Shown here: in pieces, positions 1 to 12,601 of the stretch
Position numbering within the stretch: the stretch's first letter is position 1
Layout of the letters: every line of letters begins with the position of its first letter
Virus record (IMG/VR): IMGVR_UViG_2606217105_000016
Coordinates: 1 to 12,601 of that record
Strand: one strand, 5' to 3'
Length of the DNA stretch: 12,601 bases
From: a virus
Lineage: Duplodnaviria; Heunggongvirae; Uroviricota; Caudoviricetes
Translations under genes and position numbers: made by a program
Notes under the pieces: model-generated
Databases searched by the model: none
What the model saw: the letters and a program-made list of their open reading frames with translations, nothing else
What the model was told of the DNA's origin: nothing

Positions 1-1119
1 TCAAATAACCAACTTAACCCATTCCTGACCTCGAGTATCGTTATAGCGATCGGTGGTTGCCTGGACTTTATGTCCTAGTAATGTTTTTGTATCGATACCC
101 TGTGCACGGTACAGCCGTTCTGATAGAGAGCGTTGTTCATGAAATGTTGGCGGAGTTTTTCCTGCTGGTGGAATTATCCCAGCCAGATCCCGTGCTTTGG
201 CAAAGTAGTCGCTCAGGTTGTCTTTACTCATCGGCTTCGGTTGTTTCTGGTGCCGACTATGGATTAGATATGGACTTAATATTCTGTCTCGGCACCCATC
301 AATAACTTCTTTTAACGTTATCCCAATGGCATCACAGCGTAGTGTAAGCGGTAACGCCAGACGCATTCCGGTTTTTCCCTGGGTGATATGCAAGTGTTCG
401 TTCCACACATCTGAAAAACGCATGTGGCAAATGTCATCACGGCGCTGACCAGTAACAATCGCAAGAAGCATTGCGTTACGGATAAAGTGTTTTTCAGGCG
501 TTGCATTGTAAATTTTTTGCCAGTCTTCCATGGTGAGCCTAGCTCTGGTTACTTTAGGGATCGGTTTACGGGTAGCCTCCGGAGGATTCCATCCAGGAGG
601 AACTTCCCCTGCATGCTGTGCTTCTTTATAAATATCAACCCATAATCCACGATTTACTCTCGCTGTGCTGACCATGTCTTTATCCAGCCACTCATCCAGT
701 ATTAATGCAAAGTCTCTTACTTCCAGTTCTTTCAATGGGTGGTTTCCCAGACGGGAAACCAGGTATGCAGCCATTCGAGTTTTTTCTTTGTGAGTTGTAG
801 CTGCAATATCTCCATTTTTCAGTCGCGTGTCCTGTATTTTCAGATATCGATCAACCCATGCCTTTAATCTGATACCCCGACGTTTTGTTGCTGACGGACT
901 TTCATCAATTTTGCGCATGAAATATTCAGCTTCTGCTGCAGCTATTCGCTGATTGGCTGTGGAAGCGATTTTTTCTGCCTTACCTTTGTCTGTTCCGAGT
1001 CCGTGAAATTTTCCAGTCACAGGATTTTTATACTGGTAGTAAACTCTGCCAGTTCTGCGATCAAACTTTTCGTAAAGACCGGCTACGTCAGTGCTGTTTT
1101 TTCGTGGCCTCGGTGACAT
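1..1119 (-). CDS. int: Phage tyrosine integrase (lambda Int family)
   Basis: 372-aa ORF with ATG at 1119..1117 and stop at 3..1. The C-terminus (HEQRSLSERLY...LLGHK...TTDRYNDTRGQEWVKL) closely matches the lambda Int catalytic tail as recalled (HELRSLSARLY...LLGHK...YRDDRGREWDKI), including the His/Arg and Tyr nucleophile region. The start overlaps the upstream excisionase gene as in lambda int/xis. Confidence 0.93.
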   Translation of the reverse strand: MSPRPRKNSTDVAGLYEKFDRRTGRVYYQYKNPVTGKFHGLGTDKGKAEKIASTANQRIAAAEAEYFMRKIDESPSATKRRGIRLKAWVDRYLKIQDTRLKNGDIAATTHKEKTRMAAYLVSRLGNHPLKELEVRDFALILDEWLDKDMVSTARVNRGLWVDIYKEAQHAGEVPPGWNPPEATRKPIPKVTRARLTMEDWQKIYNATPEKHFIRNAMLLAIVTGQRRDDICHMRFSDVWNEHLHITQGKTGMRLALPLTLRCDAIGITLKEVIDGCRDRILSPYLIHSRHQKQPKPMSKDNLSDYFAKARDLAGIIPPAGKTPPTFHEQRSLSERLYRAQGIDTKTLLGHKVQATTDRYNDTRGQEWVKLVI

Positions 1120-1357
1120 GAGTTAAAATCTCCTTCAGTGCATCATCATCGCCAGTATGAATTTCCGGCGCAATTCCCGTTTCACCAGGCCCAACAAATA
1201 CTGCTCGGCGATCTATCAGCCAACGCCCACGAATTTTTTGTGGTCTTGGAACGATGTATCCTAGTTTTCCGTATTTCACCAGGGTAGTGTTTGTTATTGG
1301 GAGACTGAACCGTTTTGGTTTCCACTCGTCGAGCGTTATCAGGTACTGTTCGCTCAT
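1088..1357 (-). CDS. xis: Excisionase-like protein
   Basis: Small (~89 aa) basic ORF immediately upstream of int, overlapping it by 32 bp. ATG at 1357..1355 is preceded by GGAG about 8 nt upstream; the ORF track extends to a GTG at 1366. Position and size fit a lambdoid Xis; sequence identity was not verified. Confidence 0.65.
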   Translation of the reverse strand: MSEQYLITLDEWKPKRFSLPITNTTLVKYGKLGYIVPRPQKIRGRWLIDRRAVFVGPGETGIAPEIHTGDDDALKEILTHVTEATKKQH

Positions 1358-1418
1358 GGCTATCACTCCGGAACGCGCCAGTTGCAGAATATCAACGACA
1401 ACTGGCGACGGTTGAACA

Positions 1419-3890
1419 TTAAAAATCAGCCTGACTCGGGATCAGTTTTTGCCAGATAACTGAAACGTATTTTGCCTGGTAACGGGCGTCATCAAGTGCA
1501 TTATGGCGCTCACCTTCGAATGGAATAGCCGTTCTGGCATCGAAGTCTATGGCTTTCCCCAGCTCAACGATTGTGCGTACATCGCGATCGTTGTAGTAAC
1601 GCCACGGGCAGGGGATCCCCTGCCGTTCGTATGAACGGCGCAAAATCGTGTTGTCGAAGTTGGCTCCATTTCCCCAGACCTGAACAAAAAATTCACCGGA
1701 GTTTTCGTCGATAAATTCCCGCAATTGTAACAGTGCATCATCTAACGGGATTTCATCGGTCATAATGGCAGATTGCGCCTCGCGTGATTGCTTAAGCCAC
1801 CATTTAATGGTGTCACGATCAATGACTCCGCCAGCAGTTTCCAGATCGATAGTCTTACTAAATTCCGGTCCCATATCTCCGGTTTGCGGATCGAAAAATA
1901 TTGCACCTATTGAGATAATCGGGGCATCAGGATTTTTTCCCATGGTTTCAAGGTCGATCATTAGATGGTCACACGTCCTGCTGGTGGATGTGATAACGCG
2001 ATGACCGTTCACCGTAATTAAGGGATCTGCCGTCTCGCCAGTTTCACTATCGCTGGCGTGATCCTGAGCGCTGCCAGCATTCTCCTTGTGTGGGTGTTCA
2101 GCGCCTTCCATTTTCTCCGAATCGTCTTCCTGAACTTCAACCTGGTTCTTGTCATCGAATGTTTCCTGGTATGTTGCGTCGCCCATCACCGCACCACAAT
2201 CAGGGCAGTTGCCACCACCGCTCTGACCGCAGGCGGTGCAGATTTTTTCCGGTTCCTGTTGCACTACTGGTTCAGGTTGTTTCGTTTCTGGCTCGTTTTG
2301 TTGCGTATTTGGGCTGTTTTGTTCCGCTTTCTGGTCGTTCTGTTCCGTTTCTTGCTGGTTCTGGTTCACAGTATCGCGGGTCTGGATCCCCTTAACCCAT
2401 TTCGGATCATTCGGGTCGCTAATCCCTTCAATAAATTCACCACGTGATGCAGCAAGCAACTTATCGGCGTCAGGCTGGCTGATATTGGCTGCCTGCATAA
2501 TTTTGTTTACTTCGTCAGCGGTAACTTTTACCGGTTCTGGCTGTGCGGTCGTGTCAGATGCACCAGTATTTTGTTGTGAACCTGAGTATGTACTGTTTTT
2601 GCGGGCGAAATATTCTTCTTTCGTGATTTCAGTAGCCCCGGCAGCCAGCGCCTTATCCAGACCAGAAAGTTTGTTTGCGCGACCGTATTTTTCGCCATCC
2701 TTGTCGGTGAAGAGGAAGTAGAACGGCCCCTCACGCTCTACAGATGGTTCGACTTCCACTTTGCATTCGGTTTTTTCGTTGTCCGGAATTGCCGTTTCCA
2801 CTGCATCAGTTTCTGGTACTGGCGACGAGAGAGTATCAGTTGCGCTCTGATTTGTTCCTTCATCTTCAAACACGCCCTTTGTAGTCAGGTATTCAGTAAT
2901 GTATTTGTTCAGTGCCACAGGATCTTTGTGAATGTCGATCGGACGTCCACGGACAAGGCCAAAAATAGTCTGGCGGTCGTAGCGAAGGGCATCAGGCTGT
3001 TTGCGCATCGATGCCGAGATACGCTTCCAGTCTTCGCGGTCGTTGTCGATAACTTCATTTTTTGCCCAGCGATGGATGCTGCCGTCAATGTTTCCGGCAT
3101 CCACATCACCAGGCCAGAGAGCGTAGGCCAGTTCGTCATCCAGTGTTTTCCATGTCTGCTTGTATTCGCGACGAATGACTGCAGTGACAGGGGAGATATT
3201 TTCTGCTGAGTTTTCAGTGTGCTGTCGGTTGACTCTGGCGCGGGCGAGATCAACAGCAGACGTGTATTTTCCGGTTTCCTTGCGTTCACCTTCGCGACGT
3301 TTTTTCCAGATGCGCATCTCTGCCTGAATTTCGGGCCATTTAGCTCCAGGCTTACATTTATGCTTAACCCACCCGATGGCATGCAACTTAAGTTCTGGAT
3401 ACATGGCGTTAACTTCTGGCATTTTCATCAACGCTTCAACGATATGTCCGTCGAATGTTGCCATGTCTTCCTGCAACAATTCCTGCGCGCTAATCACCAT
3501 ATCAACGGTGATGTTTTCACATGTGTCGAACTTAACCATGACAGCGTTCTGTACTTCAGGGGCCAGCTTGTCAAAAGTGACGTTCATCGGATCTGATTCA
3601 GTCTCAACCGGGACAAAGGAAGCAGACTCCTCATCCCAGCGGTTTTCCTGCATATATTCAGCATCCCAGGAATCGAGGGCAGGGCGGGGTATACCGGGTT
3701 TATCCTCGCAAACAAGAAATTTATAAGCGCAGTCCTGAGCAGCCGGATAATGCTCCAGGAATTGCCAGTGAAATTTTGCGCGGGCGCGACGTTCATCACC
3801 GGCTTCAATGGCAGTGGCTACAGCGACTGCACCTTCTTCCTTTATTGCCTGTTCGTCCGGAATGGCGGCGCAAATAAAGACTTTACTCAT
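1419..3890 (-). CDS. Exodeoxyribonuclease VIII-like protein with C-terminal DnaQ-like DEDDh 3'-5' exonuclease domain, CxxC-x7-CxxC zinc ribbon and Q/E/N-rich linker
   Basis: 823-aa ORF, ATG at 3890..3888 with GAGG upstream. C-terminal roughly 190 aa carry the exonuclease motifs Exo I (MIDLETMG), Exo II ([13 protein letters not shown]) and Exo III ([10 protein letters not shown]). Zinc ribbon [15 protein letters not shown] is encoded near 2190..2237. A low-complexity Q/E/N/P linker is encoded near 2236..2400. Confidence 0.85.
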
Positions 3891-3982: not shown

Positions 3983-4174
3983 TTAAAGACCTGCCGGGAT
4001 TTCGTTATTATCCTGGTGAATAACTTTATCGACCGGGTAACAGTTACCGGGAATTTTCTGTTCGGTTGCTGCAGTCATACATTCCTGCATTGTCCTGTGA
4101 ACACTGACTGCAATATCAACTGGCTCTCCGGAAACAAGATAAACTGTCAGAACAAGCGCAAATGCTGAATTCAT
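3983..4174 (-). CDS. Small hypothetical protein with N-terminal signal-peptide-like hydrophobic segment (~63 aa)
   Basis: ATG at 4174..4172 preceded by AAGGA 8 nt upstream. Begins MNSAFALVLTVYLVSGEPV, which looks like a signal peptide or membrane anchor. Its start overlaps the stop of the upstream ORF in an ATGA arrangement. The ORF track's longer 81-aa version starts further upstream at 4228. Confidence 0.5.
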   Translation of the reverse strand: MNSAFALVLTVYLVSGEPVDIAVSVHRTMQECMTAATEQKIPGNCYPVDKVIHQDNNEIPAGL

Positions 4175-4359
4175 TGTGCACATCCTTTTGGCATCAGACG
4201 TAAACGAGCCAGCATTGAAACAATGCATATTTTATTTAATAGCTCCCGTTCTTGTTTTCTCTTGTTAATGGCATCTTCAGTAAATACTGGGTTACTGATA
4301 GTGACACCAATTTCAAAACAACCTTCAGACGTATTAACGTTTGGTAATAACGTTTCCAT
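4171..4359 (-). CDS. Small hypothetical protein (~62 aa)
   Basis: ATG at 4359..4357 preceded by GAGGA 7 nt upstream. Its TGA stop (4173..4171) overlaps the ATG of the downstream gene, suggesting translational coupling. The ORF track's 97-aa version starts at a GTG at 4464, which is less convincing. Confidence 0.45.
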   Translation of the reverse strand: METLLPNVNTSEGCFEIGVTISNPVFTEDAINKRKQERELLNKICIVSMLARLRLMPKGCAQ

Positions 4360-4917
4360 TATCGCGTCCTCAACAATGAATTTTGTGATGCGGTGCCTGG
4401 TGCCTCCAGGTGACGTTAACCAGTTAACAATTAACGCCGGATACAGAGAACCCACCCATAACACTGTTTTTGGTTTTAACTGTTCCGCGTGCGCTTAGCC
4501 GCATTCACCGCATCACAAAATTCACTTTAAAAAGGGCGGCAGAGCAGTCACGGAGTAAAACTGATACCGCCAAACGCCACCAGAAAATTGATAACAGAGG
4601 GCGTTGCAGCGGGGTTGTCACTTAAGCGTATGGTCAACCTGACAACCCGGTGTCCTCAACGGGGAAGGAATAACCCCGCCATACTTACCGCCGCGCCATT
4701 TCGCGGATTGCCACAACCGGAAGCGCACGGTCGAATTAAATTTAACGACACCGTACAGACAGAATAACTTCGCCGTGCGCTTTCGCGTTATGTCCTGACT
4801 TTTCAGGGATATATCCTTCCAGTAAACTGCCAGTGCCGGATGCTCACCCGTGTCCGGCGCACGCACTCCACCTGACCCGTGGAGAACTCCTTAATTACCA
4901 ACCCTCAGGAGGGTGAA

Positions 4918-5139
4918 ATGACTAGTAAAAATGTAAATATCCAGTTTAACCACGATGTTTCTCCTGCTGGACTTGCGGATGAGCTCACTGCTATAAAAAC
5001 GGCAATTATGCTACTTGCTGCTAAGTTGCCTGCGTCATCAAAGCCAGCGGAAATTTGTGACTCATTGCGTAAGATGAATTCAACAAAATGCAATGAGATG
5101 GCATCACTTATTGAAAGTGCAATTGATTTTAATGATTAA
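4918..5139 (+). CDS. Hypothetical small protein (73 aa)
   Basis: ATG at 4918 preceded by a canonical AGGAGG (4907..4912) with 5-nt spacing. It is the only plus-strand gene in a block of minus-strand genes and overlaps the 3' end of the convergent gene 5129..5503 by 11 bp. Confidence 0.5.
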   Translation: MTSKNVNIQFNHDVSPAGLADELTAIKTAIMLLAAKLPASSKPAEICDSLRKMNSTKCNEMASLIESAIDFND

Positions 5140-5503
5140 TCGAAATTTCATGGCTAACTGTAACACTCCCATCTGTGGCGGGATGGTTTAAATCGCTGGG
5201 ATTAATGCCGCACTCAGTAAAATGGTTCTTAAGGGGTTCTATCCGAATCCCTTTCTTTTTCATTAACAAGCCAAACCCCTTATCAATGATATCCATTAAT
5301 TCCAGGAGGTATTTTTCATGTAAATCCTGGTTATCAGAGAGCTGCTTCTCTTCGTACAGACCGATAAAGGCACGACGCACGTTACCGGATATAGTATCGA
5401 TGGTTTCTTTTTCTACGGTACTCAGGTCAAGAGTCGCCAGTTGGGAACGAACTATATTCGCTGCCATTTCCTGGAATTGCATTGGTAAATCTTTAAATTC
5501 CAT
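5129..5503 (-). CDS. Hypothetical protein (124 aa)
   Basis: ATG at 5503..5501 with GAGG upstream. It is the second gene of the leftward operon downstream of the repressor-flanking operators. No recognisable motifs. Confidence 0.6.
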   Translation of the reverse strand: MEFKDLPMQFQEMAANIVRSQLATLDLSTVEKETIDTISGNVRRAFIGLYEEKQLSDNQDLHEKYLLELMDIIDKGFGLLMKKKGIRIEPLKNHFTECGINPSDLNHPATDGSVTVSHEISINH

Positions 5504-5525: not shown

Positions 5526-5744
5526 TTAACGCGGGCATGTAATCATTCTGGCAATGCTTAATGCCGCTGCTTTTTCCAGCCTGGTGATATCCTGCTCCAG
5601 AGCGGACAGATTTTCAGCCTGCTTAGCCTTGGCTTCATTGGCCCATTTCAGATCCTGCGCTGCATTAATTTTCTGGCGCATCCACTCATAAAGTTCATCA
5701 TCGGTATAGTCTGGCGCGATGATGACGGGTTCTCGTTTCTGCAT
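5526..5744 (-). CDS. Hypothetical protein (72 aa), first gene of the leftward early operon
   Basis: ATG at 5744..5742 preceded by GAGGA 6 nt upstream. Acidic, predicted helical. It lacks an arginine-rich N-terminus, so it is not an obvious lambda N-type antiterminator. Confidence 0.6.
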   Translation of the reverse strand: MQKREPVIIAPDYTDDELYEWMRQKINAAQDLKWANEAKAKQAENLSALEQDITRLEKAAALSIARMITCPR

Positions 5745-5939: not shown

Positions 5940-5978
5940 ATACCCATAGGTATTTAAAAAGTAAATACCCATGGGTAA
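5940..5978. promoter_or_regulatory. OL-like operator pair with a leftward pL-like promoter
   Basis: Two 14-bp palindromic sites 25 bp apart: ATACCCATAGGTAT (5940..5953) and ATACCCATGGGTAA (5965..5978, containing the perfect 12-bp palindrome TACCCATGGGTA). On the minus strand these interleave with a -35-like TTTACT and a -10-like TATCCT, mirroring the OR/pR arrangement. Confidence 0.6.
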
Positions 5979-6539: not shown

Positions 6540-6821
6540 ATGGAAGAATTAAGAATATTTCTCAATTCTCTTTCGTCAGATGAACAGCGTATGTTTGCAT
6601 GCGAGTGTGGTACCAGCATCGGTTATCTAAGAAAGGCATTGAGTAAAGGTCAAGTGTTAGGGGCATCGTTATGTGTCCTTATTGAGCGAGCCAGTAATGG
6701 TGAAGTTACACGTCAGCAACTAAGGCCTTTGGATTGGATGAATATTTGGCCCGAGCTGGAAGATACCAAAACGTTAACACAACCACTTTCTAGGAGCTTG
6801 ATTCATGAAAATCAAGCATGA
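6540..6821 (+). CDS. Cro-like (YdaS-type) small HTH regulator
   Basis: 93-aa ORF, ATG at 6540 preceded by AAGGAG with 5-nt spacing. The segment CGTSIGYLRKALSKGQ resembles a Cro/YdaS-type HTH. Divergent from the repressor. Confidence 0.75.
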   Translation: MEELRIFLNSLSSDEQRMFACECGTSIGYLRKALSKGQVLGASLCVLIERASNGEVTRQQLRPLDWMNIWPELEDTKTLTQPLSRSLIHENQA

Positions 6822-7230
6822 ACACATCCGCATGGCGATGAATGCCTGGGCGCGTCCTGATGGCGAAAAAGTTCCAGCAGCTGGAATAACCCAGGCTTAT
6901 TTTGAGTTGGGTATGACGTTTCCTGAACTGTATGACGACAGCCATCCGGAAGCCTTGGCTCGCAATACCCAGAAAATTTTCCGCTGGGTAGAGAAAGACA
7001 CCCCTGATGCAGTTGAAAAAATTCAGGCGTTGTTACCAGCGATCGAAAAGGCAATGCCACCTTTGCTGGTGGCCAGAATGCGCAGCCACAGTTCAGCTTA
7101 TTTTCGGGAGCTGGTGGAGACGCGGGAGCGACTGGTGAGAGACGCTGATGATTTTGTCGCAGTGGCAATCGCCGGTTTCAATCAGATGAACCGTGGTGGC
7201 CCGGCAGGAAATGCTGTGGCAGTACATTGA
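6805..7230 (+). CDS. CII-like / YdaT-like prophage protein
   Basis: 141-aa ORF overlapping the Cro-like gene by 17 bp; ATG at 6805 with AGGAG upstream. Size, position immediately after the cro-like gene and the N-terminus MKIKHEHI match my recollection of Rac prophage YdaT. This is from memory, not verified. Confidence 0.65.
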   Translation: MKIKHEHIRMAMNAWARPDGEKVPAAGITQAYFELGMTFPELYDDSHPEALARNTQKIFRWVEKDTPDAVEKIQALLPAIEKAMPPLLVARMRSHSSAYFRELVETRERLVRDADDFVAVAIAGFNQMNRGGPAGNAVAVH

Positions 7231-7301
7231 CTGACAATAGCCATATCGAATCGCTTCCGGCAACTCGTGAGTAAAAAGATTCGGTATCAGAAGAGGTGAG
7301 T

Positions 7302-8372
7302 ATGGCTAACGCCTGGCTCAGATTATGGCATGACATGCCAAATGACCCTAAGTGGCGAACAATTGCCAGGGTGTCAGGGCAGTCAATTGCAACAGTGATG
7401 GCAGTGTATATCCACCTCCTGGTGAGCGCGTCACGAAATGTCACGCGAGGTCACATTGATGTCACGACAGAAGATTTGGCAAGTGCGCTCGACGTGACAG
7501 AAGAGGTAATTGATTCAATTTTGCAGACGATGCAGGGGCGGGTACTTGATGGTGATTTAATCACTGGATGGGAAAAACGCCAGGTGCTGAAAGAGGACAA
7601 CGGCAATATTTCGCAAACCGCAAAATCTCCGGCAGAGCGCAAGAGGGCGCAGCGAGAGAGGGAAAGAAAGCGGGAACAAAATGGAGATTGTCACGGCGCG
7701 TCACGAAATGTCACGCACATGTCACGACGAGTCACGACAGATAAAGATACAGATAAAGATACAGATCAAGAAGATCAAAACACTATGGTCCATGGCGTAA
7801 AAAACGCCACGAACCAGGCAGGGGATGTTCAGACCGTCAATCCTGGTCAGCCAGCAGGCACGACACCGGAAGCCGATTCAGCGTATGCGCTGAAAGCCGA
7901 TTCGGGCGCTGTGCAGCAGGTGATGACCGCAAGGCCGGAGCAATCACACCAACTGCAGCAGCCTGAAGCCGATTCCGCCATTCAGCGGGAAGCCGATCGG
8001 GTAGTCCCGGAAAACACCGGGCAGCCTGTGAGACGAGTGGATTATCCGGATGTGTTCGAACAGGTCTGGCGGGAATACCCGTTGCGTGCTGGGGCAAACC
8101 CGAAGAAATCCGCTTTCAGTGCCTGGAAGGCCAGATTACGCGAGGGGGTGCCACCAGAGGCCATGCTGGATGGCGTGAGGCGTTACGCAAGATACTTGGC
8201 GGCTACCGGGAAAACGGGAACGGAATTTGTTCAGCGAGCGACGACGTTTTTTGGACCGGACCGGAATTTTGAGAACCCCTGGTTGCTCCCGGTAAGCGGC
8301 ACGAACAACCAGCGTTGTGTGAATCATATTTCTGAACCGGATAACGAAATTCCGCCGGGCTTCAGGGGGTAA
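7302..8372 (+). CDS. Replication initiator-like protein (YdaU/DUF1376-like) with internal iterons
   Basis: Probable ATG at 7302 with AAGAGG 5 nt upstream; the ORF track begins at a GTG at 7296. It sits where lambdoid phages carry the O-type initiator, and contains two iteron clusters in-frame, analogous to ori-lambda inside gene O. It also contains a DKDTDKDTD tandem repeat. Confidence 0.7.
   Translation: MANAWLRLWHDMPNDPKWRTIARVSGQSIATVMAVYIHLLVSASRNVTRGHIDVTTEDLASALDVTEEVIDSILQTMQGRVLDGDLITGWEKRQVLKEDNGNISQTAKSPAERKRAQRERERKREQNGDCHGASRNVTHMSRRVTTDKDTDKDTDQEDQNTMVHGVKNATNQAGDVQTVNPGQPAGTTPEADSAYALKADSGAVQQVMTARPEQSHQLQQPEADSAIQREADRVVPENTGQPVRRVDYPDVFEQVWREYPLRAGANPKKSAFSAWKARLREGVPPEAMLDGVRRYARYLAATGKTGTEFVQRATTFFGPDRNFENPWLLPVSGTNNQRCVNHISEPDNEIPPGFRG
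7426..7470. repeat. Iteron cluster 1 (candidate replication origin element)
   Basis: 45-bp block gcgcgtcacgaaatgtcacgcgaggtcacattgatgtcacgacag with TCACG-type motifs at about 10-bp phasing (7431, 7441, 7451, 7462). Its first 21 bp are identical to the start of cluster 2. Confidence 0.65.
7696..7740. repeat. Iteron cluster 2 (candidate replication origin element)
   Basis: 45-bp block gcgcgtcacgaaatgtcacgcacatgtcacgacgagtcacgacag, exactly 270 bp downstream of cluster 1. TCACG motifs at 7691, 7701, 7711, 7722 and 7732 are phased at roughly one helical turn. Confidence 0.65.
7740..7775. repeat. Short tandem repeat (12-bp unit gataaagataca, two copies plus degenerate copies)
   Basis: gataaagataca at 7740..7751 and 7752..7763, followed by gatcaagaagat. 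Encodes DKDTDKDTDQED inside the replication gene. Confidence 0.7.
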
Positions 8373-8412: not shown

Positions 8413-8823
8413 GTGGCAAAAGTTTTTACACAAGAAGAGCGAGAAAAAATTAAAGGGCGGGTTGTTGAACTCGTACGCCAGAGTGGGCGTGAGACGTTAC
8501 GGCAACTGGAAGTCAAGACAGGTGCGACAAGATATCTGATGAGCGTTCTCGCAAGAGAGCTGGTTGCCAGCGGCGATGTATACAACTCTGGTTACGGGTT
8601 ATTCCCGTCTGAACAGGCGCGTAAGGACTGGCAAAATGCCCGTAAAAAGCTCTCAAGGGCAAAGCCGAAGAAACCATCTGCGGTTGATCCGGACCTTATC
8701 TGGTCATTACCTGACGGAGAAATACGTCGCTACGACAGGCGTCAGAACATAATCTGTCGCGAGTGCCGGAAGAGCGAAGTTATGCAGCGCGTGCTGGCGT
8801 TCTATCGGCGACGTTTTAGGTAG
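8413..8823 (+). CDS. Hypothetical basic protein (136 aa), possible winged-helix DNA-binding protein
   Basis: GTG start at 8413 preceded by AGGAGG (8403..8408) with 4-nt spacing. Arg/Lys-rich C-terminus with a CxxC-like RECRK segment. Function unknown. Confidence 0.55.
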   Translation: MAKVFTQEEREKIKGRVVELVRQSGRETLRQLEVKTGATRYLMSVLARELVASGDVYNSGYGLFPSEQARKDWQNARKKLSRAKPKKPSAVDPDLIWSLPDGEIRRYDRRQNIICRECRKSEVMQRVLAFYRRRFR

Positions 8824-9399: not shown

Positions 9400-11511
9400 A
9401 TGGCGCGTCAATATGAAATGCAGATATCAAGGATGACAGTAGATAAATTAGGTGTGAAATTATATGACAGGGCTTATGCTGTTATAGCCGAATTAGTATC
9501 TAACAGTTACGATGCAGATGCGACTAATGTCACTATAAAAGCACCTATGGGCCAATACTTGGCTGTTAGACAGGATGGTGTTGTCAGGTCAAAAAATGTC
9601 ACAATAGAAGTAGAAGATAATGGCGTCGGAATGGCGCCTGATGAACTACAGAACTTTTATTTGGTTGTTGGCAAAGAAAGACGTAAGGATCCAAAAAGAG
9701 GTGAAACCTCGAAGGTGTTTCACCGCAAAGTCATGGGACGGAAAGGCGTTGGGAAATTAGCACCTTTTGGTGTTTGTAAAAGGGTCGAGATTATAAGTGC
9801 CGGTGGGGAAAAAATCAGTCGTGATGGAAAGGAAGGGTATGAGGTTGCTCATATTCAGCTAGATAAAGAAAAAATAATGGATGATACTGCAGTGTCTTAT
9901 AAACCGGAAACTGGGGATTTAGACGGCACACTAAGTGACAGGACCTATACTAAAATAATATTAAGTGATTTTGAATATAGAAAAATTAGCGAAATAAAAG
10001 ATTTATCTCGGCAGCTTTCACAACGTTTTGGAGTGAAGAGTAAAAACTGGAATATTAAACTGATTGATACTTCGAAAACAAAGTCTAATCCTGACTATGA
10101 AGTTGAGGTCGGAGAGTTTACTGTTCCTGTTATGCCTAACTCTAAAATTGAATTTCGTTCCATGAGTGGAAGTATTGCGACAGATTCTTGTACGGATTTA
10201 AGTGATTATACGGCTTTTAATCCTGACGGCACGCGTTCATCAATTGTTAAGGCCGGTTTTGAACATGAAGGGAAAGCTTACCCGATATTAGGTTGGATTG
10301 CATACGCGAAAGAGCCTTATAAGGACGAGTTAATGGCAGGTGTTAGAATTTATTGCCGAGGTAAGTTTGCTGCGCAAACAGCAGTTTTTAATAGAAAAGC
10401 TGGTTTTACTGGAGAGCACTCTATACGTTCATATTTGGTAGGTGAGTTGCATGCTGACTGGTTAGACGAAAAAGAAGATCTTATCCAAACTGATAGAAGG
10501 GATATTCTATGGTCTGATGATTTAGGAACGCAATTTCAGAATTGGGGGCAAGAAGTTATTTTACTTGTGGGTAAAATAACTCGCGACCCCCTTAGAAATA
10601 ATATGATGAATCAATTCTTCGAATTAGCGCAAGTGGAGGATAAGGTCGAGCAAGCATACCCTGGAGCCGGTCAAAAGGATATGCGAGCACAGGCTAAAAA
10701 AATAGCCAAGTTGTTGGGTAAATCTTTACGAGGTGATGAATTACATGATCCTGATGCACTCGAGAATTTAGTGCAGTTAAGTATTATGTTAGCACCATTA
10801 CAATCCTTAGATGAGAAGTTAATAGAAGCTTCCAGTAAAGCGGATACACCGCTCAATGTTCTCAACGATATTTTAGCAACGGCTCAACTAGCTGAAACCG
10901 TTAGTTTTGGTCAAAAGGTCAAAAAGCGTCTTCAGATTATTGAGCGTCTCGAGTCTTTAAAAGACGCAAAGGATACAGCAGAAGATGAGTTACAAGATCT
11001 AATTGCATCCGCTCCGTGGCTAGTTAACCCTCAATGGGTCCCAGTTACAGCAAATAAAACGTTGTCCACGCTTAAAAGGGAATTTCAAAAATTTTATAAA
11101 AAGAAAACTGGTGAGGAGATATTTCTTATAGATTTTGATAAAAAAAATAAAAGACCAGACTTTGTATTGTTTAGTCAGGATGGAAAATTACAAATAATTG
11201 AAATAAAAAAGCCACATCATTATATTTCCAATGATGAAATGGATCGTATTATTAATTACTTCGAAACATTCGAGGAGTTTTTGAACGATGAGAGACATAA
11301 TGATTTTAAATCAATAGCATCTGATTTTCACGTTACGCTGGTAAGTGATGGGGAGCGCTTGAGTGGGGCACGTCGTAAAGCTTATACTGCATACATCGAA
11401 GAAAAACGCCTAACACCCGTTGATTGGGCAGGGTTCTTGCTGAGGACAACTCAAACTCACCAAGAATTCTTGGATGAGGCAGAACAGTTGAAGTTGGGAA
11501 ATAATGAGTGA
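9400..11511 (+). CDS. GHKL-family ATPase (MORC-like) fused to a C-terminal PD-(D/E)xK nuclease domain; predicted ATP-dependent restriction endonuclease
   Basis: 703-aa ORF, ATG at 9400 preceded by AAGGA. N-terminal Bergerat-fold motifs: ELVSNSYDADA (E-x3-N-x2-D-A), DNGVGM (DxGxG) and GRKGVGK. C-terminal nuclease motif RPDFVLFSQDGKLQIIEIKK (PD...EIK). The stop overlaps the start of the methyltransferase gene by 8 bp. Confidence 0.8.
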   Translation: MARQYEMQISRMTVDKLGVKLYDRAYAVIAELVSNSYDADATNVTIKAPMGQYLAVRQDGVVRSKNVTIEVEDNGVGMAPDELQNFYLVVGKERRKDPKRGETSKVFHRKVMGRKGVGKLAPFGVCKRVEIISAGGEKISRDGKEGYEVAHIQLDKEKIMDDTAVSYKPETGDLDGTLSDRTYTKIILSDFEYRKISEIKDLSRQLSQRFGVKSKNWNIKLIDTSKTKSNPDYEVEVGEFTVPVMPNSKIEFRSMSGSIATDSCTDLSDYTAFNPDGTRSSIVKAGFEHEGKAYPILGWIAYAKEPYKDELMAGVRIYCRGKFAAQTAVFNRKAGFTGEHSIRSYLVGELHADWLDEKEDLIQTDRRDILWSDDLGTQFQNWGQEVILLVGKITRDPLRNNMMNQFFELAQVEDKVEQAYPGAGQKDMRAQAKKIAKLLGKSLRGDELHDPDALENLVQLSIMLAPLQSLDEKLIEASSKADTPLNVLNDILATAQLAETVSFGQKVKKRLQIIERLESLKDAKDTAEDELQDLIASAPWLVNPQWVPVTANKTLSTLKREFQKFYKKKTGEEIFLIDFDKKNKRPDFVLFSQDGKLQIIEIKKPHHYISNDEMDRIINYFETFEEFLNDERHNDFKSIASDFHVTLVSDGERLSGARRKAYTAYIEEKRLTPVDWAGFLLRTTQTHQEFLDEAEQLKLGNNE

Positions 11512-12601
11512 GAAAACAGTGACCAGTTTGAATGCAGTTGACCTATTTAGCGGTGGTGGGGGACTAACCATGGGACTAAAAATGGCCGGGTTTGATGTCA
11601 AAGCTGCCGTTGAACTGGACGCACATGCCGCCGCTACTTTCCAAGCAAATCATCGTGAGACAAAACTCTTTGTTCAAGATATTCGGTTTGTAAAGGGGAG
11701 TGATATCCTAAATCTTATCCCTGAGCAACATTTAGATCTTTTATCTGCGTGCCCGCCATGTCAAGGATTTACTAGTCTCACTGCCAAGTATAAAAGGGAG
11801 GACCCTCGTAATTTATTGATTAACGAGATGTTACGGTTGGTTGAAGAAACCAATCCATCAGCAATCATGATGGAAAATGTTCCTGGATTAGCTTCCCGGG
11901 GAAATCATCTTCTTTCGCCAGTAATTGAGAGATTGAAAAAACTTGGTTACATAGTTAATTATGGAGTTTTGCAAGTAGCTGACTTTGGTGTACCACAGTT
12001 CAGAAAAAGGCTTGTTCTGTTGGCAGGAAAAGGATTTGCCATCCCATTGCCTGATGGATCACACTCTAAGGATGGAAGAGAGAAACCCAAATGGGTAACT
12101 GTTAAAGAAGCTATTGGAGATATGCCAAAACCCTTAACTCTTTCACAGGCTAAGAAGCAAGGGAAGTTTCCATTGTCGAGTTGGCATATTGTTAGGGATT
12201 TGTCTGAGATCAATATAAAGCGGTTACAAGCGGCTGTTCCAGGGATGTCTTGGGAGTGTATTCCCGAAGAACTCCGTCCAGATTGCCATAAAGGCGACTA
12301 TAAAGGATTTAGTAATGTTTATGGTCGTATGCTTTGGGATGACGTATCGCCTACGATTACAGGTGGGTGCACAACTTTAAGCCGTGGGCGATATGGACAT
12401 CCTGAGGATACGCGTACTATTTCTGTTCGAGAAGCTGCTAGACTACAGACTTTTCCTGATAACTATGTGTTTGATACAGCTTTGATGGATAAAGTATGCG
12501 TCATAATAGGAAATGCACTTCCATGCAAGTTTGCAGAGTATTTGGCTAACCACTGTAAAAATTATATTAATAAAGCAAGAACAGCTGGATTAATACCATA
12601 A
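11504..12601 (+). CDS. DNA (cytosine-5)-methyltransferase
   Basis: 365-aa ORF with the canonical m5C methyltransferase motifs: I (LFSGGGGLTMGL), IV (PPCQGFT, catalytic Cys), VI (ENVPGL), VIII (QFRKRLVLL), IX (REAARLQTFPDNYVF) and X (GNALPCKFAEYLANH). A variable target-recognition region lies between VIII and IX. ATG at 11504 overlaps the upstream gene. Confidence 0.93.
   Translation: MSEKTVTSLNAVDLFSGGGGLTMGLKMAGFDVKAAVELDAHAAATFQANHRETKLFVQDIRFVKGSDILNLIPEQHLDLLSACPPCQGFTSLTAKYKREDPRNLLINEMLRLVEETNPSAIMMENVPGLASRGNHLLSPVIERLKKLGYIVNYGVLQVADFGVPQFRKRLVLLAGKGFAIPLPDGSHSKDGREKPKWVTVKEAIGDMPKPLTLSQAKKQGKFPLSSWHIVRDLSEINIKRLQAAVPGMSWECIPEELRPDCHKGDYKGFSNVYGRMLWDDVSPTITGGCTTLSRGRYGHPEDTRTISVREAARLQTFPDNYVFDTALMDKVCVIIGNALPCKFAEYLANHCKNYINKARTAGLIP

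Follow-up and report, generated by a model that had tools for sequence, protein, structure and literature searches.

The pair of small overlapping genes in this 12,601-nucleotide stretch of phage DNA (hereafter the window) can be identified from its sequence as dicB-ydfD, the distal part of a dicBF-type early-left operon of an Escherichia coli lambdoid prophage, with K-12-like functions, an inferred coupling of the two reading frames and a predicted fold for YdfD; in this explanation as a whole we have very high confidence. Both are already known, named and annotated genes with published mechanisms. The outcome is thus mainly negative, in that the pair no longer counts as unknown small secreted proteins, and the reading of the YdfD N-terminus is corrected, since prediction and cysteine co-variation both put this segment in the mature fold. 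Of possible use to those who work on YdfD are the predicted fold with its covarying cysteine pair and an overlap that recurs with another upstream partner in other genera.

Identity of the two genes and of the prophage that carries them

The product of the upstream gene matches the Pfam DicB model PF05358 from end to end (model positions 1-62 of 62; E = 1.4e-40; 137.3 bits against a cutoff of 27) and scores 133.7 bits against NCBIfam NF049927, whose curated cutoff is 100. It is identical to K-12 DicB at 61 of 62 residues (98.4%), with K2E as the sole difference, and in RefSeq genomes the gene is named as such ('cell division inhibition protein DicB'). The hallmarks of the DicB family are all found here, namely a full-length profile match, a product of about 62 aa made from an internal in-frame start, and a position downstream of DicF in an early-left operon. 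With dicB of the Qin cryptic prophage of K-12 the gene shares its 62 aa, its place between DicF and ydfD, and the internal in-frame start. On these matches it is dicB, encoding the cell-division inhibitor. A PDB sequence search with DicB returned no relatives.

By comparable evidence the downstream gene is ydfD, which encodes a lysis protein of the DUF1482 family. Its product matches PF07358 (DUF1482) over profile positions 1-57 of 57 (E = 2.8e-25; 88.4 bits, cutoff 25) and phrog_1092 over its full length (E = 2.8e-37), and an NCBIfam search gave no meaningful match. It shares 60 of 63 residues (95.2%) with K-12 YdfD, the differences being V6A, F12Y and I57N, and the Qin gene has in common with it both the 63-aa length and the ATGA overlap with dicB. 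The RefSeq label, 'lysis protein YdfD', agrees, and the paralogous name YebW is also in use at NCBI. The window protein carries the family signature, consisting of the N-terminal motif FALV(L/I)T, G16, Cys32 and Cys45; among 26 diverse DUF1482 members V8, C32 and C45 never vary and conservation is at least 90% at A6, L7 and G16, and both cysteines occur together in 142 of 152 unique DUF1482 sequences. The initial annotation had called the function of the pair unknown, which does not hold for two genes that are named and have been studied experimentally.

The program-made list of open reading frames gives longer forms of both genes, 97 aa from GTG 4464 for dicB and 81 aa from ATG 4228 for ydfD. 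The Pfam models cover only residues 36-97 of the former and 22-79 of the latter, and RefSeq annotates the short forms. Because the family profiles align to the short forms only and RefSeq annotates these, we take the short forms to be the products, and not the longer listed frames. For DicB, an in-phase internal start is named in the title of a 1988 paper by Cam et al. that PMC8835842 cites. The overlap between the stop of the 62-aa frame and the start of a frame of about 63 aa, as well as the ribosome-binding sites proposed for both, are borne out by the sequence and the translations (Table 1).

Table 1. Features of the window, and of distant loci where so stated (positions in parentheses after a locus name refer to that locus).
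Feature	Position	Strand	Remarks
int	1..1119	-	
xis	1088..1366	-	
823-aa 3'-5' exonuclease, intact	1419..3890	-	downstream of ydfD; Pfam Rv2179c-like 3'-5' exonuclease domain, E = 2.4e-67; phrog_2082, full length
ydfD (ORF2)	3983..4174	-	ATG 4174..4172 to TAA 3985..3983; 63 aa (MNSAFALVLTVYLVSG...IPAGL)
ATGA stop/start overlap of dicB and ydfD	4171..4174	-	read off the minus-strand sequence and the translations
dicB (ORF1)	4171..4359	-	ATG 4359..4357 to TGA 4173..4171; 62 aa (METLLPNVNTSEGC...KGCAQ)
Shine-Dalgarno motif AAGGA for ydfD	4183..4187	-	8 nt 5' of the ATG, within the dicB coding sequence; upstream reads CCAAAAGGATGTGCACA-ATG
Shine-Dalgarno motif GAGGA for dicB	4367..4371	-	about 7 nt 5' of the ATG; upstream reads TTGAGGACGCGATA-ATG
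DicF sRNA (ftsZ antisense regulator)	4534..4585	-	with intrinsic terminator stem, just upstream of dicB; Rfam RF00039, 76.4 bits (gathering score 48), E = 8.5e-16, positions 1-52 of 52
opposite-strand ORF	4879..5139	+	between DicF and the 124-aa ORF; 86 aa in the ORF list, 73 aa in the IrN annotation
124-aa ORF	5129..5503	-	
ydfC	5526..5744	-	
inverted repeat	5941..5977	-	16-bp stem (TACCCATGGGTATTTA...TAAATACCTATGGGTA), then a T-rich tract; between the repressor gene and ydfC
CI-like repressor, 139 aa	6020..6439	-	phrog_5736 transcriptional regulator, E = 6.4e-70
cro/YdaS-like gene	6540..6821	+	
YdaT-like gene	6805..7230	+	
replisome organiser	7296..8372	+	
DUF977 gene	8413..8823	+	
ATPase/methylase cargo	9400..12601	+	
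703-aa protein	9400..11511	+	N-terminal GHKL ATPase (HATPase_c_3, E = 7e-19); C-terminal region resembles HSDR_N_2/SduA (DUF4263)
C-5 cytosine DNA methylase	11504..12601	+	runs off the window; PF00145, E = 6e-58; PADLOC MTase_II, E = 9e-91; 8-nt overlap with the 703-aa gene
conserved basic 41-aa ORF (MIDFAR(Q/K)PARIQAVRGNAFTAPLRFLWR...)	L012 (3879..4004); L013 (3879..4004); also L014 (1608..1733)		
isrB Hfq-binding sRNA	L012 (4729..4817)	-	RF01386, 80 bits; just downstream of the DUF1482/YdaE genes

The window represents the left arm together with the immunity and replication region of a mosaic lambdoid E. coli prophage. Its gene order (int, xis, exonuclease, ydfD, dicB, DicF, ydfC, repressor) therefore places dicB and ydfD in an operon of the PL type, and the initial proposal of an int-proximal early region of a lambdoid phage stands. 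K-12 and strain IrN share this gene order, as do isolated phages, Tritos and vB_EcoM-606R7 for instance. Compared with Qin, the left arm looks intact, with full exonuclease, xis and int genes; in Qin the exonuclease gene survives as a truncated pseudogene directly next to a fragment of an IS2 transposase, and where Qin has ydfA and ydfB the window has the 124-aa ORF. The two also differ in immunity, which here is not of the DicA/DicC kind: opposite the repressor lie a YdaS-like cro and a YdaT-like gene, and the right operon is of the YdaS/YdaT type. No HTH or other Pfam match was found in this repressor, which is not detectably DicA-like; at the matching position phage Tritos has an equally long gene (420 bp) that is annotated as CI repressor. 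Presumably it is this repressor that controls the leftward operon with dicB and ydfD, and because it is not DicA the published DicA/Rem control of dicBp may not apply.

Among complete E. coli genomes the exact mosaic of the window occurs in none, the best match covering 84% at 97.6% identity. The inverted repeat ahead of ydfC may serve as a terminator or, at the start of the leftward operon, as an operator-like element. The opposite-strand ORF between DicF and the 124-aa ORF matches phrog_7249 over its full length and converges on the latter with an overlap of 11 nt. At the other end of the window, the 703-aa ATPase (best PADLOC match REase_II, E = 6.7e-34, N-terminus only) and the methylase look like cargo for restriction-modification or defence that was inserted behind the DUF977 gene; the otherwise similar prophage of IrN has DUF4406 and DUF4752 genes at this site.

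Published functions and their likely counterparts here

In K-12, DicB binds MinC, and the complex reaches the septal ring via ZipA and depolymerises FtsZ, giving rise to filamentation; the DicB-MinC interaction also inhibits ManYZ, which makes cells about 100-fold resistant to lambda and to further phages that depend on ManYZ (PMC6832061). Expression of YdfD leads to rapid and near-complete lysis, which occurs only while cells divide and does not take place when DicB or SulA is expressed as well, and the protein is reported to bind IspG, a cytoplasmic enzyme, and so to cut the isoprenoid supply; this last mechanism comes from a single study without enzyme kinetics, as its authors themselves state (PMC8835842). 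The two genes are described as belonging to one operon and overlapping in part (PMC8835842), and a 1608-nt transcript ydfABC-dicFB-ydfD is on record (PMC10448788).

By homology, inactivation of the repressor in the present prophage would give one leftward transcript that runs through ydfC, DicF, dicB, ydfD, the exonuclease gene, xis and int. Its DicB, one residue different from the K-12 protein, would bind MinC and reach the septal ring via ZipA, where FtsZ would be depolymerised and division would therefore stop; acting together, DicB and MinC would also inhibit ManYZ and so block the DNA entry of lambda-like phages that use it. Its YdfD, three residues different, would lyse dividing cells, its binding to IspG starving the cell of isoprenoid carrier lipid, and this lysis would be prevented whenever DicB or SulA stopped division. 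We infer the DicB functions (MinC, ZipA, ManYZ) of the window allele from its 98.4% identity to K-12, and those of YdfD (division-dependent lysis, IspG) from an identity of 95%. The three YdfD substitutions could affect activity, because very small changes (ΔN1, ΔC1, L63A) cost published mutants their activity and killing is weakened by minimal truncation at either end (PMC8835842); yet A6 and N57 are the DUF1482 consensus, to which the window protein is closer than K-12 YdfD at these residues. An early guess that the pair might serve host takeover or superinfection exclusion fits DicB well, given its division block via MinC and ZipA and the exclusion of ManYZ-dependent phages (PMC6832061).

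It might be argued that dicB-ydfD works as a toxin-antidote module, serving to stabilise the prophage or to abort infection, with YdfD as the toxin and DicB as the neutraliser. YdfD alone is indeed lethal and the cells are rescued by DicB (PMC8835842), the genes are co-transcribed (PMC10448788) and overlapping, and the pair is widespread in cryptic prophages. We nevertheless regard such a module as very unlikely. DicB neither binds nor inhibits YdfD, and its rescue is indirect because SulA also rescues (PMC8835842); DicB is, moreover, itself toxic (PMC6832061, PMC10448788). To this it may be added that no PADLOC defence model was matched by either protein, and that the partner of DUF1482 in other genera is another small ORF.

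Lambda Kil and Rac KilR are, like DicB, small proteins of PL-type operons that block the FtsZ ring on prophage induction. DicB acts through MinC and ZipA and not directly on FtsZ or ZipA, and we know of no sequence relationship between DicB and these two. YdfD has been likened to phiX174 E, Qβ A2 and M Lys with their targets MraY, MurA and MurJ, that is, to small phage proteins that lyse growing cells via a biosynthetic block and not by murein degradation (PMC8835842). Unlike these single-gene lysis proteins it is encoded in the early-left operon of a tailed temperate phage, which carries a holin/endolysin cassette of its own at another place; IspG, the target proposed for YdfD, acts upstream of lipid-carrier synthesis, and YdfD has no homology to E, A2 or Lys.

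Conservation of the dicB-ydfD overlap

The DicF-dicB-ydfD segment is common in E. coli: a 721-bp query that spans it is matched in 4664 of 5426 complete genomes, 3777 of which cover at least 80% of the query, with 100% identity in strain IrN and 98.1% in K-12. The gene pair is also found in isolated temperate phages (Tritos, PhiR42_1, HannyBb, mEp460 and the vB_Eco series). A related-loci search with the alignment of close homologues used below returned six loci, all from Escherichia or Shigella except for one in a metagenome-assembled genome labelled Veillonella. In that assembly (Veillonella parvula, JAGZPX010000007.1) the dicB-ydfD locus lies on a 22.9-kb contig and is about 90% identical to E. 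coli; it probably stems from an Escherichia prophage and entered the bin as a contaminant.

At the junction, cacaATGAatt, four nucleotides are common to the dicB stop and the ydfD start. The initial annotation had proposed conservation among related prophages as a check, and all 11 other fetched loci in which both genes occur keep the overlap; among them are K-12, IrN, E. ruysiae, E. albertii, Shigella and three phages. In the diverged Escherichia phage PPompW, which retains DicF, the junction is altered and the overlap reads GTGA, with a GTG start, while DicB is 63% and the DUF1482 protein 48% identical to those of the window. The AGGA core of the ydfD Shine-Dalgarno motif is likewise kept in most loci and is replaced by GGAG in PPompW. 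A 4-nt ATGA overlap as such is a very common operon junction, the commonest overlap class in bacterial operons, and the window itself has further overlaps between int and xis, between the cro-like gene and YdaT, and between the ATPase and methylase genes. Judged from these alignments it is the conservation of the dicB/ydfD overlap, and not the overlap itself, that exceeds chance. We also considered an mRNA hairpin that would occlude the ydfD Shine-Dalgarno motif and dropped it, because the fold predicted around this motif does not significantly exceed shuffled controls in stability (z = -0.96).

At more distant DUF1482 loci in other assemblies the upstream partner changes. In two of them (L012 and L013) a conserved basic 41-aa ORF takes the place of dicB ahead of DUF1482, its Shine-Dalgarno motif being strong and its junction again ATGA, and in a third (L015) the DUF1482 gene overlaps an upstream 97-aa ORF by 13 nt. 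DicF is absent at all three. The 41-aa ORF was dropped as a DicB relative, there being no similarity, and its PHROG matches, to two families of unknown function, were weak throughout. Two loci with unrelated flanks, whose DUF1482 genes share about 55% identity, are 86% identical in the DNA of this ORF. Synonymous changes account for only 2 of the 11 codons that differ, so that an RNA element or a recent exchange is possible. The isrB sRNA gene at L012 suggests a Salmonella-type host for that distant prophage.

These data bear on whether the two frames are translated together. The overlap, combined with ydfD's own Shine-Dalgarno motif, would allow ribosomes that end on dicB to restart on ydfD, in which case YdfD would not be produced without its antagonist DicB; we find such translational coupling plausible. 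The overlap may, on the other hand, be mere genome compaction kept by descent and of no regulatory role, with ydfD translated independently from its own motif. The good spacing of the AAGGA sequence, a junction mRNA that is not significantly structured, and the general prevalence of 4-nt overlaps in bacterial operons are in keeping with this, and as identity exceeds 85% for most of the loci compared, conservation partly reflects shared ancestry. Against compaction speaks that the overlap persists in PPompW despite a diverged junction, a GTG start and divergence of both proteins, and that it reappears behind an unrelated 41-aa ORF in distant loci; linked production of the two proteins would also make functional sense, since DicB suppresses YdfD lysis (PMC8835842). 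We therefore consider compaction alone somewhat unlikely. That the overlap recurs behind a different upstream ORF in distant loci argues that co-translation of the DUF1482 gene with an upstream small ORF is under selection.

The N-terminus and predicted fold of YdfD

The initial annotation described the N-terminus of the second protein as signal-peptide-like, a description that now appears doubtful. The hydrophobic run, AFALVLTVYLV, is 11 residues long and is followed by S-G and then E-P. No lysine or arginine precedes it in the window protein, nor in 112 of the 117 DUF1482 members that have the N-terminal motif. The best 19-residue window of YdfD scores about +7 kcal/mol on a Hessa-type scale, and is therefore not a transmembrane helix.

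Structure prediction, which had been proposed at the outset as a further check, assigned the supposed signal peptide to the first strand of a ββαβ fold. AlphaFold2 was run with two alignments, one of close homologues (A1) and one of a diverse set with identities as low as 26% (A2), and both runs gave a single topology, with strands at 4-12 and 18-26 that form a β-hairpin, a helix from 29 to 38 or 39 and a strand at 44-48. Mean pLDDT was 82 and 80, and in both runs it was 81-91 over residues 1-40. Among distant 50%-cluster representatives of DUF1482, Cys12 and Cys18 co-occur in nine of nine cases, neither being found alone. Position 12 lies within the hydrophobic run (the window codons for positions 12 and 18 are at about 4141..4139 and 4123..4121), and since the two positions close the predicted hairpin, their co-variation independently supports the AlphaFold2 model; the co-occurrence also indicates that the N-terminal segment is part of the mature fold. 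A Foldseek search of the model against BFVD returned nothing at E <= 0.001, all matches being uncharacterised, and a PDB sequence search with the DUF1482 profile found no relatives.

YdfD could still be an exported or membrane-anchored protein, in which residues 1-16 would be a Sec signal peptide cleaved after VSG, or an anchor, Cys32 and Cys45 would form a periplasmic disulfide, and lysis would proceed via the envelope at the division site and not by cytoplasmic IspG inhibition. The hydrophobic run, at 11 aa, lies within the 7-15 residues of an h-region, and the S-G-E-P that follows it, with valine at -3 and glycine at -1, fits the -3/-1 rule; two cysteines are near-invariant in a protein of only 63 aa; and four distant members have a longer, lysine/arginine-containing hydrophobic N-terminus that resembles a signal anchor, so that some family members may be exported. 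The first paper on YdfD, from Masuda in 2016, reportedly described an N-terminal transmembrane segment, which we count in favour of export, as we do the division-dependence of lysis (PMC8835842). Residues 1-28 of YdfD are, however, reported to bind cytoplasmic IspG, and the loss of one or two N-terminal residues lowers killing (PMC8835842). The shortness of the run and the absence of a preceding positive charge, its energetics, the confident prediction of a β strand and not a helix, and the co-variation of a cysteine inside the segment with Cys18 all speak against export as well, and we consider it improbable. Most likely, on the predicted model, the hydrophobic N-terminus is the first β strand of a compact ββαβ domain, in which Cys32 and Cys45 form a conserved pair, and not a cleaved signal peptide.

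A more general, decidedly speculative proposal, to which we give little credence at present, is that the DUF1482/YdfD proteins are compact cytoplasmic ββαβ mini-domains with a structural first strand and a two-cysteine site (four-cysteine in some lineages) for a disulfide or a metal/Fe-S contact that would be relevant to inhibition of IspG, a [4Fe-4S] enzyme. Their genes, apparently always overlapped by 4 nt behind a small early-left ORF in Enterobacteriaceae prophages (DicB in Escherichia, the unrelated basic 41-aa ORF elsewhere), would then suggest a general two-gene module of the 'brake-then-lysis' kind with enforced co-translation. The distant members with the second cysteine pair have four cysteines in about 60 residues, which could form two disulfides or a metal site.
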